Shown here one piece after another: positions 7,066 through 12,738 of a stretch of DNA of 12,897 nucleotides; the stretch's first letter is position 1; the number at the start of each line of letters is the position of its first letter. Below the pieces are notes generated by a model. The model saw nothing but the letters and a program-made list of their open reading frames with translations, ran no database searches and was not told where the DNA came from. The translations under genes and the position numbers were made by a program. Source of the stretch: Thermoplasmata archaeon (GTDB lineage: Archaea > Thermoplasmatota > Thermoplasmata > GCA-020350865); the NCBI GenBank assembly GCA_036475875.1, contig JAZGAR010000236.1, positions 1 through 12,897 of the forward strand. The letters are read 5' to 3'.

Positions 7066-8106
7066 CTATTTCTTCCTGTACACACAAAAGTTTCTTGTCA
7101 GGGATTTATGGACCCGTAATGCATAGGATTCCTTCAGGCTCAGATATTTCTCCCCAATTTGAATGAACTTCGCATCTGGCAACAGGATGGATAGATATCC
7201 ACCAGGTTTCAGCACCTCTGAGAAGGTCTTAAAAGCCCTTTTGTAAAGGCTAAAAACCTCCTCACCATTGGTTGTGGCGGACCTCCCATATGGAGGATCC
7301 GTGGCAATGGCGTCCACATCTTCCATCTTATTGATAACTTCCCTGATATCGGAACAAAAAAGCTCTGCATTCTGGATATTGAGACTGGATAGGTTCTCTT
7401 GACAGCCATCAACCATTCTCTTATCGATATCGCTGCCTATCGGCTTCGCACCCACCAATGCAGCCTCTATCAAAACCCCACCAGTGCCGCAGAAAGGATC
7501 GAGAAGGGTTTGACCTTTTTTTACCCTTGAAAGATTCACAAGTGCCCTGGCCAACCTCGGGTGAAGAGACACAGGCGAAAAATACGGCCTGAACTGGACT
7601 TTTCTGGATTCAAAGGCACTCCTGTCGATTTTGGCCAGGGTTATCCCTATATGGCACCTGTCTGAGAGAATCACCCTGACCTCAATATTTGGGTCTGAGA
7701 GATCCACCTCGTTCTTGCCCACCACATTCTCAGCAACCGTCCTTTCCACATCTTTGAGGTTAAGATTCTCATGAAATCTCTGTATTCTCTTTGCCCTCAC
7801 AGCGAAGCTTCCTTCTCCAATCTCAAAGGCCTTTCTCAGCGCAGCCAGTTCATCTGCCTCGCAAGAAAAGAGGTGGTTCTGGATATTGTGCGTTAGAGCC
7901 AACCTTCTCTTCATTTCCTCTAAGTCCAATTCCGGTACATCCATGATGAGAACACCCAAATCCTCCTCCGCGACCCTGAAATCGATTTTTTCAGCCTCTA
8001 GGCAGCCGATTATCTCAGCCTTTGGAAGGCTTTCATGTTCTCCTGAAAGTTCAAAAATAAAGCCGCACTTGTTTTCATTTGAACTTGAAGTCAAGTGCTT
8101 CAACAT
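7066..8106 (-). CDS. trm11: tRNA (guanine10-N2)-methyltransferase, archaeal Trm11/Trm-G10 type (THUMP + class I MTase)
   Basis: The N-terminal half is THUMP-like. The C-terminal half has SAM motif I LDPFCGTGGVLIEAALVGA and the catalytic ATDPPYG. ATG 8106 has GGAG 9 nt upstream, so I prefer it to the GTG at 8121 given in the ORF track. Confidence 0.8.
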   Translation of the reverse strand: MLKHLTSSSNENKCGFIFELSGEHESLPKAEIIGCLEAEKIDFRVAEEDLGVLIMDVPELDLEEMKRRLALTHNIQNHLFSCEADELAALRKAFEIGEGSFAVRAKRIQRFHENLNLKDVERTVAENVVGKNEVDLSDPNIEVRVILSDRCHIGITLAKIDRSAFESRKVQFRPYFSPVSLHPRLARALVNLSRVKKGQTLLDPFCGTGGVLIEAALVGAKPIGSDIDKRMVDGCQENLSSLNIQNAELFCSDIREVINKMEDVDAIATDPPYGRSATTNGEEVFSLYKRAFKTFSEVLKPGGYLSILLPDAKFIQIGEKYLSLKESYALRVHKSLTRNFCVYRKK

Positions 8107-8785: not shown

Positions 8786-9049
8786 ATGGTTAGAATGGAC
8801 AACAAGGTTGCACTTCGTTTTACATTTATTAGCGAGCCAGAGAAGCCTGTGGTCACTGTACAGGTTCCGAAGGATATGTTGTTTCAGGAAGCGTTGGTTC
8901 TGGCTGCAAAAAAACAGGGCAAGGATCCCAGCATTTTAAGCGCCACATATCCAGCAGGTACGCCTATTACCGGCGGAACGGTTGAAAAGGTCATTGAGCA
9001 GGGCGCCAATATACATGTCATCGACCCCTCCGTCGTGGGTTCAAGGTAA
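8786..9049 (+). CDS. ufm1: UFM1-like ubiquitin-fold modifier, pro-form (Gly85 followed by Ser-Arg)
   Basis: Aligns end to end with human UFM1 as recalled. KVALRFTFISEPEKPVVTVQVPKDMLFQEALVLAA matches [35 protein letters not shown], and the C-terminus IHVIDPSVVG-SR matches LRIIPRDRVG-SC. ATG 8795 is an alternative start. Confidence 0.8.
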   Translation: MVRMDNKVALRFTFISEPEKPVVTVQVPKDMLFQEALVLAAKKQGKDPSILSATYPAGTPITGGTVEKVIEQGANIHVIDPSVVGSR

Positions 9050-9136
9050 CTCAAGAACGAAATGGGATGAGTGTTTACCTCAGCTTTCGTTGGCACATTG
9101 ATAATTCATGCTTCTAATCTTGAGCGGGATATATAA

Positions 9137-9661
9137 TTGGCACCAAGACGTGATGCTGTGAAGCAGGAACCGGATTTATTCTATTTCTTGCAATGCTCCA
9201 CCGTGGTTTCTCCACAAGATGAGCAATGGGCTATGAGGATCAAGGAGGAGAAATACGCCCTTTTAAAATACATACAGTATGTGGATTACATGGAGAAGAG
9301 CGAGAAAGAGCAACGATGGTTCTCAATAAGACCTATTGGCGAAGATGCCATACGATGGGAGGGCACTGTAACAGCGGAAAACAGGACCTATCTCATAGAA
9401 ATAGTGCTTAAAGACTCTTATCCGTACACACCTCCCGCCGCAAGAGTGCCTGAACTTATGCGCTACACAGACAGAAAGCTAGATGACAATATCCTGGGCT
9501 TGAGAATCTGCGATATGCATATGGAGCAGAACTACTGGTGGAACGAGTACTGCAGTCTTGCCCTGTACTTGAAAAGAGAAGTATCGTACTGGCTGCAGAG
9601 CGTGATATTCCATCTGAAGCAAAAAGGTTGGTTGGAATGGACGAAAGGTATCAACGACTAG
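9137..9661 (+). CDS. ufc1: UFC1-like E2 (UFM1-conjugating enzyme homologue), catalytic Cys at 9509-9511
   Basis: Four blocks match UFC1: SPQDEQWAMRIKEEKYALLKYI vs [30 protein letters not shown]..IRWEG vs DWFRLES..TRWFG; DSYPYTPPAARVPEL vs ITYPTTAPEIAVPEL; LRICDMHM vs GKICLTDHF. There is no HPN motif; TDR sits where UFC1 has TAK. Homology extends upstream of the first ATG (9233), so the start is probably TTG 9137 or GTG 9158. Confidence 0.8.
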   Translation: MAPRRDAVKQEPDLFYFLQCSTVVSPQDEQWAMRIKEEKYALLKYIQYVDYMEKSEKEQRWFSIRPIGEDAIRWEGTVTAENRTYLIEIVLKDSYPYTPPAARVPELMRYTDRKLDDNILGLRICDMHMEQNYWWNEYCSLALYLKREVSYWLQSVIFHLKQKGWLEWTKGIND

Positions 9662-10527
9662 CCCTGTTTGAATTCGCTGATTTCTCGAAGCTTCGCAACA
9701 AGAGCGCTTTGGTTGTGGGAGTTGGGGGCCTTGGAGCAACTGTGGCAGAAATCCTCACCAGAGTGGGTATCGGAAGATTGGTGCTAATAGATTACGATAA
9801 ACTCGAAATAGCCAATATGAACAGATTGATATACAAGCCAAGCCAGGTTGGAATGTATAAGGTGGAGGCTTTGAAAGATTACCTCTTTGAAATCAGTCAA
9901 GACGTGGATATCGTGGCTTATCCCAACGACATTACCACGGGAGAGGGATATAAAATCTTTATCGAGGAGACCGAGAAAAGTGATGTGGTTTTTGGATGTG
10001 TGGATACATTTGGGGTGAGGCTTTTTATGAACGCAAAATGCGTAAAGAAGGGGAAAACGTTTATTGACGGCGGAGCGAGCCTTGACGGCATTAGAGGTAG
10101 TGTACAGGTGGTGATACCGGGCAAAACCGCCTGCTACAGATGTCATAGACATGTGTTGGGCCTGGGAAAGGAAAGACCGCAAGAACCAGATGTGGATTCG
10201 AAGGATGTCAAGGAGGATATGGAGTTCTACTTAGGGTTCGAGGAACCGGGAAAAGACAGAGAATCAGGGCTTTGCCACATAACTTCTTTGCCCACCACGA
10301 TGGCTATAATCGCTGCCCTACAGTGTCAAGAGGGTTTCAAGTATCTATTGAATTTCGGTGAGGTGGCTGGGTTTTTGATGTACAACGGCTTCAGAGGTGA
10401 GATAGAGAGGTATGACAGAGAGATAGACCCGAATTGTCCTGTATGTGGAAAGGGAAAAACCCAGTTGGACGAGAAGAAGCTCAAGGAGATAGATGAAGCT
10501 GCAAAGATGTTCGATAAGATGACCTAG
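9637..10527 (+). CDS. uba5: UBA5-like E1 (UFM1-activating enzyme homologue), adenylation domain only; catalytic Cys at 10273-10275
   Basis: VGVGGLGATVAEILTRVGIGRLVLIDYDKLEIANMNRLIY matches UBA5 [40 protein letters not shown]. Further matches are CVDTFGVR / CVDNFEAR, VIPGKTACYRC / IIPGESACFAC, GLCHITSLPTTMA / GVCAASLPTTMG and KYLLNFG / KFLLNFG. The second zinc pair is CPVC. I place the start at ATG 9637 (MDERYQRL, matching the YSRL start of the UBA5 domain). The ORF is open from 9538, but that stretch overlaps the E2 gene. Confidence 0.85.
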   Translation: MDERYQRLALFEFADFSKLRNKSALVVGVGGLGATVAEILTRVGIGRLVLIDYDKLEIANMNRLIYKPSQVGMYKVEALKDYLFEISQDVDIVAYPNDITTGEGYKIFIEETEKSDVVFGCVDTFGVRLFMNAKCVKKGKTFIDGGASLDGIRGSVQVVIPGKTACYRCHRHVLGLGKERPQEPDVDSKDVKEDMEFYLGFEEPGKDRESGLCHITSLPTTMAIIAALQCQEGFKYLLNFGEVAGFLMYNGFRGEIERYDREIDPNCPVCGKGKTQLDEKKLKEIDEAAKMFDKMT

Positions 10528-10543: not shown

Positions 10544-11587
10544 ATGGTTGACCAAAACAATGTGGTGATGAAGCGCGACCTGAAAAGAGCCATAATAGAG
10601 CATGCATTGGACGGGGCGAGAAAGGATGGTTATGAAGTTCTGGGTTGGCTTACCGGCTTCTCCACAAAAGACACTGTTTACATATGCGATGCGGTCCCAT
10701 GCACCAAGTACAAGAGACAGTCTAGATACAGTGCTGAGGCTGACCCGAGCGAAGAGGCCAAGCTGGCAAGTGAGTTTCCAAGGAATGTGGGCATCGTCGG
10801 TTTATACCACTCCCATCCATTCAAGATGGATCATGAGTCAGGCGAATTCAGAAGGCTCTACGGGGTGAGTGAGCTTTTCCATAGCGGTACGGACGATGCC
10901 ATGCTGAGAAGCAGATCCAGTAGGATGAAGAACTATGTCTCTGTTGTTACAGATATAGATAACATATCCTGCTATGTAATGCACCGCAAGAAGCCCAAGA
11001 AGGTCAAGGAGAACCTGGTGAGTGACATCAATTTCAAGGATCATTTGCGGCCTATAAATTCGAAGATCCAGTTCACCATCAATAAAAGGTTCGATAAAAA
11101 ATTGGGTCTCGGTAAAATGATCAGAGCCATCGAGGAGAAGTTGTTGGAAGACATAGACAAGAAAGTGAAGGAAGACGCTGTTCGGATTCAACAGGGTCCA
11201 GTAGGCAACGTGATGCGAATACTGCCCTTCGAACGGAATCTCAACGAGAGGGCAGGCAACGCCAAAGGGAATTTTTTCCGCATAGCTCCAGAGAATGGAA
11301 AGGTAAACATCAAGGCTGTGATGAACCTCACGCCCACAATCTTCGTGCAGAAAGGCTACATCGATCTATCCTCTGCCACAGAATCCATGAAGAACGAGAT
11401 CGCCGACTACATCGTTTACCTCACATGGAACGATATCGAATACTCAGAGTTCGAGAGGCATTTGTCCTCGCAAATAAGGGAGTTGGAGGTCCATTTGGGG
11501 CGTTTAACAACAAAATACGATGAAATGAGTGGTATTCCAATGAAGATCTACACAAGGCCTAAAAGAAGGATGACCCTTAAAAAGTAG
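10544..11587 (+). CDS. JAMM/MPN+ metalloprotease with ~200-aa uncharacterised C-terminal domain (candidate pro-UFM1 processing / de-UFMylase)
   Basis: The motif elements are YEVLGWLTG (catalytic Glu), GLYHSHP (10808-10816) and HSGTDD (Ser-x-x-Asp). ATG 10544 has GGAG 8 nt upstream and lies 16 nt after the E1 stop; the TTG at 10529 is the alternative. I recognise no family for residues ~150-347. Confidence 0.75.
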   Translation: MVDQNNVVMKRDLKRAIIEHALDGARKDGYEVLGWLTGFSTKDTVYICDAVPCTKYKRQSRYSAEADPSEEAKLASEFPRNVGIVGLYHSHPFKMDHESGEFRRLYGVSELFHSGTDDAMLRSRSSRMKNYVSVVTDIDNISCYVMHRKKPKKVKENLVSDINFKDHLRPINSKIQFTINKRFDKKLGLGKMIRAIEEKLLEDIDKKVKEDAVRIQQGPVGNVMRILPFERNLNERAGNAKGNFFRIAPENGKVNIKAVMNLTPTIFVQKGYIDLSSATESMKNEIADYIVYLTWNDIEYSEFERHLSSQIRELEVHLGRLTTKYDEMSGIPMKIYTRPKRRMTLKK

Positions 11588-11589
11588 GT

Positions 11590-12738
11590 TTATGTGACCA
11601 ACCTCGCCCCGCATTTTCTACAGAACATATCTCCAGGCTCGACTTTCGTGCCGCAGCCCACGCATTTAAGCTCCTCTTTCACTGGTTTACCGCATTTTCC
11701 GCAGAAAACATCCTCGTTCTTCACCTTCGCACCGCAGTTCGGGCAGTAATTCTGTTCCTCCTCTTTTTCTTCCTCCTCCCCTTTGATTTCTTCTGGTGGA
11801 GGTGGTGGTTCGATTTTGGGTAAGATCATCCTCCCGATGCTTTCTTCATAGCATTCCCTACAGGTGGTCTCCTCTCCGCCGTTAACCTCGATACAGATAT
11901 AGGCTATTTTTCTCTCGCCGCAAATGGAGCATATCTTAAGTTCCTCAGGCTCAATATGGGCAGTTGCCAGGTCTGAAATGATCTTCTTTCCTTCTTCACC
12001 CTCTCCTGGTGCAACGCCGAAAAGTGCTTCTGCCCCCCTTTTGGAGCAAAGAGCAAGCTTGAAGGCCTCGTCATAATCTTCCTTGGCAAAGCAGGCTTTC
12101 GCCTCGGTAAGCAATCTTTGGGCTTCACTTGCATCTGAATCAGCCATCATTGCATTCTCTTTTGCTGTGCCTGCCAAGGATATTGTGAACTTCGCAGCCA
12201 GGTAATTATCTGGTTTTTTCTCGATGGTATTTGATATATCTGGGATTTCCTCATGGAATTTGAGCACTTCTTTTGGCTTTTGGTTCTCCCCCACCAAATC
12301 CACTATCTCCTTGGGGGTTGATCGTGCCTCAATATCTGAATTCGAGGACACGACCCCAAAACCCGTTTTTTTGTCCCAATCCTTCTTTGAGCTCAATAAA
12401 AGCTCTTTCGCCTCCTCTATGGTAAATTTAGCCTTCTTTTCCAATCCCTGATCGTAGTAGGTATTCGCCTTGCTTATCAAATCCTCGGCAGAACCGGTGT
12501 CAATGCCTCTTCTTTTGAGATCAGTGGCTATCCTCCTCGTAGAGTTGATGATATTGAAGATATCGTCTGAATCCGGGGTCGAGGAAATCGCCTCCAAAAC
12601 TTTCGTCTCCTTCCTTTTTTTTACTGAAGGACCCTTTCTGACCTTCAACAGAATCCTTATTCCCATCCCAATTACAAAAATTACTCCAGCTACTATAATC
12701 AAAAAAAGAACTAGGCTTTTTATTTCTTCGGCCGTCAT
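11590..12738 (-). CDS. N-terminally membrane-anchored protein with helical repeat region, Pro/Glu linker and three zinc ribbons (one CxxC...CxxC plus a double zinc ribbon)
   Basis: A TM helix (LVLFLIIVAGVIFVIGMGIRILL) is followed by KVRKGPSVKKRKETK, so the rest is predicted cytoplasmic. MIT/TPR-like helices are present (SEAQRLLTEAKACFAKEDYDEAFKLAL). Then come CSICG...CRECY, a PPPPPEEIKGEEEEKEEE linker, and CPNC-x10-CGKC-x9-CVGC-x10-CRKC. TATA-like TTTAAATA (12762-12769) lies 23 nt upstream of the ATG. Confidence 0.7.
   Translation of the reverse strand: MTAEEIKSLVLFLIIVAGVIFVIGMGIRILLKVRKGPSVKKRKETKVLEAISSTPDSDDIFNIINSTRRIATDLKRRGIDTGSAEDLISKANTYYDQGLEKKAKFTIEEAKELLLSSKKDWDKKTGFGVVSSNSDIEARSTPKEIVDLVGENQKPKEVLKFHEEIPDISNTIEKKPDNYLAAKFTISLAGTAKENAMMADSDASEAQRLLTEAKACFAKEDYDEAFKLALCSKRGAEALFGVAPGEGEEGKKIISDLATAHIEPEELKICSICGERKIAYICIEVNGGEETTCRECYEESIGRMILPKIEPPPPPEEIKGEEEEKEEEQNYCPNCGAKVKNEDVFCGKCGKPVKEELKCVGCGTKVEPGDMFCRKCGARLVT

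Follow-up and report, generated by a model that had tools for sequence, protein, structure and literature searches.

We consider it likely that the UFM1-like modifier encoded in the window, i.e. the whole stretch of 12,897 nucleotides of Thermoplasmata archaeon DNA that was analysed (contig JAZGAR010000236.1, assembly GCA_036475875.1), reacts through Gly85 and carries behind this residue an unconstrained Ser-Arg tail, which would have to be removed before the modifier can be handled by its E1 and E2 enzymes. The trimming would be carried out by the JAMM protein of the same operon, the probable deconjugase, and tails behind the glycine would be tolerated. For the modifier family we infer conjugation, the need for trimming and the role of the JAMM protein as trimming enzyme. 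The source genome is a MAG of 354 contigs with a completeness of 80%. The positions of the features are collected in Table 1.

Table 1. Positions of the modifier gene, its C-terminal codons and the downstream genes of the operon within the window.
Feature	Position	Strand	Evidence
UFM1-like modifier gene (87 aa, P0001)	8786..9049	+	translation, AlphaFold2, Foldseek, phmmer
Gly85 codon, predicted reactive C-terminal glycine	9038..9040	+	invariant; aligns with UFM1 Gly83; conservation stops here
Ser86-Arg87 tail codons TCA AGG	9041..9046	+	unconserved among relatives
Modifier stop codon TAA	9047..9049	+	direct reading, translation
UFC1-like E2	9137..9661 (or from 9158)	+	Pfam UFC1 PF08694, PDB UFC1
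UBA5-like E1	9637..10527	+	best PDB match UBA5
JAMM/MPN metalloprotease with C-terminal domain of ~200 aa, candidate trimming and deconjugating enzyme	10544..11587 (ORF open from TTG 10529)	+	Pfam JAB, Prok-JAB

Re-reading and translation of the DNA confirmed the end of the modifier gene at 9038-9049 as initially reported, GGT TCA AGG TAA (..VVG-SR*). Translating 8786-9049 gives 87 residues with the C-terminus ...NIHVIDPSVVG-SR, in which the glycine is residue 85. This numbering holds because the ATG start at 8786 is common to the relatives from the same genus (MVRMD/MARMD). A search among 5.8 billion proteins found 45 homologues of the modifier, all from Thermoplasmata-type MAGs and metagenomes, and 43 of them were aligned. 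The glycine is present in each of these 43 proteins and in 33 of 33 genomic and metagenomic loci. Of 401 genomes sampled from the class Thermoplasmata, 30 have the modifier, and these belong to only about nine families of the class. All 30 matches extend to the last profile position, which is the glycine. Nearly all homologues end in ...VVG or ...IVG, i.e. in a single Val-Gly and not in Gly-Gly.

The residues behind the glycine differ from relative to relative. In 27 of the 43 aligned homologues the glycine is the last residue; the other 16 carry tails of 1-9 residues that are all different (SR, FR, FQ, L, Q, R, C, CW, SYR, QP, RP, HP, RGGEV, SPRPRP, TAARVR and RPRASRPAP). The genomes were surveyed at 29 loci from species-representative genomes, with the genus assigned from the class-wide search. 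Outside the genus of the window, 22 of 24 genomes have the GGN codon followed immediately by a stop codon, usually TGA, and the remaining two are sisters with tails of 7 and 12 residues. The genus itself shows the tail SR in the window and SC, FR, T and FQ in the four genomes most similar to it. For relatives of the same genus overall the ending is SC, FR, FQ, T, L, Q, R or no tail, and over proteins and genomes together tails range from 1 to 12 residues without a common sequence.

An earlier note on this DNA had predicted that orthologues would keep the glycine and vary in the tail, which is what the 43 proteins and the 29 representative-genome loci show. It had also taken the exactly two residues behind the glycine as an architecture that mirrors pro-UFM1, and this claim did not hold: the family is mostly tail-less, the remaining tails are unrelated in sequence and length, and the tail-less state is ancestral (see below). 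From these three observations together the two-residue likeness to human pro-UFM1 is a coincidence. A close relative (L001, 6253-6264) has a modifier that is 96.5% identical to that of the window and ends in Ser-Cys, the very tail of human pro-UFM1. Given the spread of the other tails, this match illustrates how easily such a resemblance arises by chance.

The end of the modifier gene was also compared at the DNA level in an alignment of seven near relatives. In the 62 nt that run to and include the Gly codon the mean pairwise nucleotide identity was 81%, compared with 29% in the 6 nt and 31% in the 30 nt that follow. Differences before the end of this codon are almost all synonymous, and beyond it the sequences are unalignable. 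The drop in identity from 81% to 29% at this codon argues that the tail residues evolve like spacer DNA and that constraint ends at the Gly codon.

The history of the tail was followed on a maximum-likelihood tree of the concatenated E2 and E1 sequences from 30 loci, which is rooted at its midpoint only and contains a single long branch (L029). Every deep lineage of this tree is tail-less. Tails appear in two well-supported shallow clades, that of the window and that of L019/L020. Changes of the tail state number at least two when only well-supported branches are considered and four by parsimony. On this tree the tail-less state is ancestral, and no rooting provides an ancestral tail without many more losses. 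A conserved two-residue pro-peptide homologous to Ser-Cys was a further candidate, which is ruled out by the distribution of the tails and the E2+E1 tree.

A different origin of the tail would be selection instead of drift. The tail would then lock the modifier in an inert form until a protease acts, an idea often put forward for the precursors of eukaryotic Ubls. Each of the five species-level genomes in the genus is indeed tailed, four of them with two residues, and four of the five have TAA at the same +3 codon position despite differing tail codons. Hypothetical read-through of the present stop codons would give a median extension of 31 codons, far above the observed tails, which have 0-2 residues within the genus and no more than 12 across the family. 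The stop codon is thus held near the glycine. The second Ubl of the same genome, moreover, ends in Gly-Gly plus four residues. Against the lock we set the tail-less majority and ancestry of the family, the two metagenomic near relatives that have lost the tail at 89-94% identity, and a conservation of the tail residues of zero. The fixed stop position, for its part, is also expected from descent and selection against long extensions. Taken together we regard a selected lock as unlikely. As all five genomes of the genus are tailed, a short tail may still have a modest selective value.

That the tail would stem from an error in sequencing, assembly or gene prediction is hardly credible. The window does stem from a fragmented MAG of 354 contigs, but similar tails (SC, FR, FQ and T) are found at the same place in independent assemblies of related genomes from other samples, which makes an assembly error an improbable source. 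In addition, a cluster of FR-tailed proteins, 95% identical to the modifier of the window, has 83 member sequences.

The spacing between the modifier and the E2 gene differs between the groups of loci. In the tail-less relatives among L005-L029 the stop codon of the modifier mostly lies 2-16 nt from the E2 start or overlaps it, with spacers of 55-98 nt in seven of them. Most genomes of the window's genus have a spacer of 81-87 nt (9050-9136 in the window). Tail gain and loss of the tight coupling between modifier and E2 coincide in most, not all, cases.

The likeness of the modifier to UFM1 is seen most clearly in its predicted structure. The AlphaFold2 model, built on the 43 homologues, reached a pLDDT of 89.1 and a pTM of 0.78. 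The best 13 Foldseek matches of this model in the PDB are UFM1 in 13 of 13 cases, with TM-scores of 0.73-0.89 at a sequence identity of 20-24%, and SUMO and ubiquitin rank below them. The rmsd between the model and the UFM1 structures is 1.1-4.2 Å, and 1.1-1.5 Å in 11 of the 13. A phmmer search of the PDB with the modifier sequence gave UFM1 chains for 12 of 13 matches (E 0.045-0.56) and one unrelated chain. In the alignment with PDB 8ohd residues 6-85 pair with residues 2-83 of UFM1, free of gaps in the C-terminal part, such that Gly85 falls on UFM1 Gly83.

Profile-based sequence searches gave weaker signals. A Pfam scan of the window modifier matched no family, including Ufm1 (PF03671). Sub-threshold matches to Ufm1 were obtained for 12 of the 43 relatives, with a best E of 0.0069, and no other family recurred. 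Searching the PDB with a profile of the family (E 0.6) brought no improvement on the single-sequence search. A profile search with the family alignment against 1.84 billion representative proteins returned no full-length match outside the modifier family; the other matches were partial and lay in fragments and long repeat proteins. Homology between the modifier and UFM1 is thus not demonstrable by HMMER at that scale. We class the modifier as UFM1-like on the basis of its model, the structural case being strong and the sequence case marginal. Measured against UFM1 proper, it stays below the Pfam sequence threshold and has a UFM1-type beta-grasp structure in the model, a single C-terminal Val-Gly, and a UBA5-type E1 and a UFC1-type E2 that are linked to it by gene neighbourhood only. 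A UfSP-processed precursor is not a trait of the family, as the extension of the window allele is absent from most relatives.

The search of representative proteins also returned a 109 aa protein (P0052) that joins residues 1-29 of the modifier directly to E2 sequence, which may reflect a deletion or a fusion. Furthermore, several proteins of 700-2700 aa (P0051, P0053-P0058) match the first hairpin of the modifier partially and more than once.

The modifier gene heads four co-directional genes, and the order Ubl-E2-E1-JAMM is found in every locus with enough downstream flank. This includes the tailed loci with the full order (window, L002-L004, L019, L020, L037 and L039) and tail-less loci likewise. 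The E2 protein matches Pfam UFC1 (PF08694) with 40.3 bits against a cut-off of 25, and its best PDB matches are UFC1 with an E of 1e-5. Its Cys125 (in ICDMHME) is invariant and falls on the catalytic KIC motif of UFC1. Translation of the E2 may start at GTG 9158 rather than at TTG 9137: the GTG is kept in seven of seven near relatives and the TTG is not conserved, and one relative has an ATG three codons upstream of the GTG. For the E1 protein the PDB match to UBA5 (1.5e-47) is far better than that to MoeB (2.7e-20). The catalytic Cys (GLC-HITSLPTTM), the four zinc cysteines and the nucleotide-binding glycines of the E1 are invariant in 31 orthologues. Downstream of the JAMM gene follows a convergent gene on the minus strand (11590-12738), which encodes a membrane-anchored zinc-ribbon protein; most related loci have its C-terminal ~110 residues conserved in the corresponding place.

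If the tail were simply kept, the modifier of the genus would act non-covalently and not via Gly85, or the system would be decaying. We hold this to be very unlikely. Modifiers of the genus share 92-97% identity and differ mostly by synonymous changes, and for E2, E1 and JAMM, whose catalytic residues are all retained, identity is 73-87%. What speaks for a kept tail is that conjugation is deduced for all members of the family, and that in the L001 assembly the 3' part of the E1 gene and the whole JAMM gene are missing. The E1 gene of this locus breaks off near residue 245, where it abuts a truncated TiaS gene (7540-7680), and a search of the L001 assembly found no JAMM of the operon type. Because one point cuts two genes, the break probably reflects the joining of scaffolds in a concatenated MAG and is as such uninformative on the absence of JAMM.

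The catalytic residues of the JAMM protein, E36, H94, H96, S119 and D122 when counted from 10529, do not vary among 27 orthologues or in an alignment of 23 sequences (A2). The whole-protein model has a pLDDT of 78 and a pTM of 0.76. The best structural match of the modelled MPN domain is the ubiquitin-bound Rpn11 homologue of Caldiarchaeum (TM 0.83, rmsd 2.4 Å), followed by CSN5, Rpn11 and AMSH, and CsRpn11 is also the best PDB sequence match of the window JAMM. The metal-binding motif has 21 residues between HSHP and SxxD, in a loop with a pLDDT below 50. Given this odd spacing, activity of the enzyme is not guaranteed. A JAMM with intact catalytic residues is present in every tail-less locus and in every in-operon tailed locus that is long enough. 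The conservation of JAMM where there is no tail means that its conserved job is not maturation; this role is most likely deconjugation.

E1 enzymes adenylate the free carboxylate of a terminal glycine. Pro-UFM1, in agreement with this chemistry, must lose Ser-Cys before activation and is matured by UfSP1/UfSP2 (PMC9168615, PMC4936604). By analogy the SR allele of the window most likely needs trimming, and maturation is probably needed in the genus. Of the obligatory maturation step and the dedicated protease that the earlier note had derived from the tail, the step probably stands for the window allele by this analogy. The dedication of a protease to maturation does not, as JAMM is conserved equally well, with invariant catalytic residues, in tail-less loci.

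The enzyme that trims the tail need not be the JAMM of the operon, which would then be a deconjugase only. The genome holds three additional JAMM genes; one of them is stand-alone and encodes 143 aa, and another, Rpn11-like, belongs to a second Ubl operon. A broad-specificity carboxypeptidase that digests the end as far as the folded domain would be another candidate, very short tails being manageable for exopeptidases. Two tailed copies lie outside the operon, namely L038 (4001-5007, tail CW) and L040 (4001-5095, tail HP), where the modifier is not followed by E2, E1 and JAMM. There, an opposite-strand gene comes after the modifier, encoding a Ras-family small GTPase in L038 and a PQQ beta-propeller in L040, and the contigs end within about 1 kb downstream. 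Set against this, an exopeptidase would have no obvious reason to stop at Gly85, tails of 7-12 residues exist too, and the operon JAMM accompanies every in-operon tailed Ubl. In Caldiarchaeum, moreover, co-resident JAMMs each cut their own modifier only (PMC6043591). Removal of the tail by another enzyme is in our view rather unlikely.

Trimming by the operon JAMM, which we favour, would proceed as follows. In an ancestor of the genus the stop codon would have shifted away from the Gly codon, leaving a functionally empty extension that has drifted freely since. Ser86-Arg87 would be removed, the UBA5-like E1 would then adenylate Gly85, and the modifier would be passed to the UFC1-like E2. The trimming enzyme would most likely be the JAMM encoded two genes downstream. 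Its conserved role would be to release the modifier from target proteins by cleavage behind this same ...VVG. Since JAMM would cut after the glycine regardless of what follows, extra codons would be nearly harmless and cheap, and tails could come and go. Repeated gain and loss, random sequence and short length of the tails would be the consequence. In tailed lineages conjugation would now depend on JAMM as well.

On a larger scale it is conceivable, and perhaps a little short of probable, that Thermoplasmata run a working UFM1-type cascade in which JAMM does both jobs of UfSP and the pro-peptide of the modifier is a by-product. If this were true, the alleles with 0, 1, 2, 7 and 12 residues would show a functionless origin of Ubl pro-forms, including the Ser-Cys of pro-UFM1. 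It is a long-standing and mostly unanswered question why so many ubiquitin-like modifiers are synthesised in precursor form. The family provides a natural experiment on it: one conserved four-gene cascade and an invariant glycine, with close relatives that have no tail or varied tails. It makes testable whether JAMM substitutes for UfSP in a UFM1-type pathway and whether the tail is more than a tolerated appendage. The two-residue tail alone is a small feature; its value lies more in the handle it offers on an archaeal UFM1-like cascade.

Compared with eukaryotic UFMylation, the window shares the modifier fold (TM up to 0.89), the single Val-preceded glycine at the same distance from the last strand, a UBA5-type E1, a UFC1-type E2 and, in its own allele, a two-residue tail. 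In contrast to eukaryotic UFM1, the archaeal tail is mostly absent and not ancestral, the genes form one operon that includes a JAMM metalloprotease, and the sequence similarity of the modifier is marginal. A UfSP-type peptidase (Pfam PF07910, Peptidase_C78) gave no match in the 80%-complete genome, in a search that also matched 0 of 14 control genomes and thus does not speak for its absence. Searches of the same genome for UFL1 and DDRGK1 were without match, and no E3 was recognised.

A short tail behind the glycine and a neighbouring JAMM are also known from systems of other types. In QbsE/QbsD of Pseudomonas, a sulfur-carrier system, the operon JAMM removes a dipeptide after Gly-Gly. In BilA/BilC of the bacterial Bil antiviral defence an adjacent JAMM exposes the glycine of a beta-grasp protein. 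Both resemble the window in these two features and differ by their Gly-Gly ends and other E1/E2 types. The haloarchaeal SAMPs with HvJAMM1 are translated with the reactive glycine last and use the JAMM for deconjugation, which is the state of most members of the window family. They differ from the family in being MoaD/ThiS-like and in having a MoeB-type E1, no E2 and a Gly-Gly end.

A close archaeal counterpart by operon content is that of Caldiarchaeum subterraneum (PMC6043591, PMC5654768), which likewise combines Ubl, E1, E2 and JAMM. CsRpn11 cuts a 9-residue tail precisely after the Gly-Gly of the precursor, as determined by mass spectrometry, and also deconjugates (PMC6043591). With the CsUb/CsRpn11 type the window shares an operon with a motif-intact JAMM and residues encoded after the reactive glycine (Ser-Arg). 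Caldiarchaeum has a ubiquitin-type Gly-Gly modifier with its 9-residue tail, a UBC-type E2 and a RING E3, whereas the modifier of the window is UFM1-type and accompanied by a UFC1-like E2 and no recognised E3. The window JAMM differs from CsRpn11 by the extra domain of ~200 residues and by the long insertion in the metal-binding motif.

UFM1, UFC1 and UFSP2 were observed only in eukaryotes according to Picchianti et al. (PMC10183829), and Ufm1 was described as confined to eukaryotes and Asgard archaea (Nat Microbiol 2026, PMC12962969). The Asgard Ufm1 homologues are like the window modifier in being prokaryotic proteins of UFM1-like structure (PMC12962969); the window family belongs to Thermoplasmata. 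Our literature search, which did not cover subscription journals, found no description of the Thermoplasmata family or of a non-Asgard archaeal UFM1-like system. Against the stated confinement to eukaryotes and Asgard archaea (PMC10183829, PMC12962969), the present data describe more closely a system with UFM1-, UFC1- and UBA5-like proteins in an archaeal class outside Asgard.

The same genome contains a second modifier operon, which is ubiquitin-type (L041, contig C83, 4448-9697). Its small ORF ends in ...QQAGG-WIRA, i.e. in the Gly-Gly with four-residue tail mentioned above, and has neither a Pfam match nor a PDB sequence match. The operon further encodes a ThiF-type E1, a canonical UBC E2 (Pfam UQ_con, 84 bits), a 693-aa RING/RWD protein and the Rpn11-like JAMM (PDB Rpn11, 3.4e-16).
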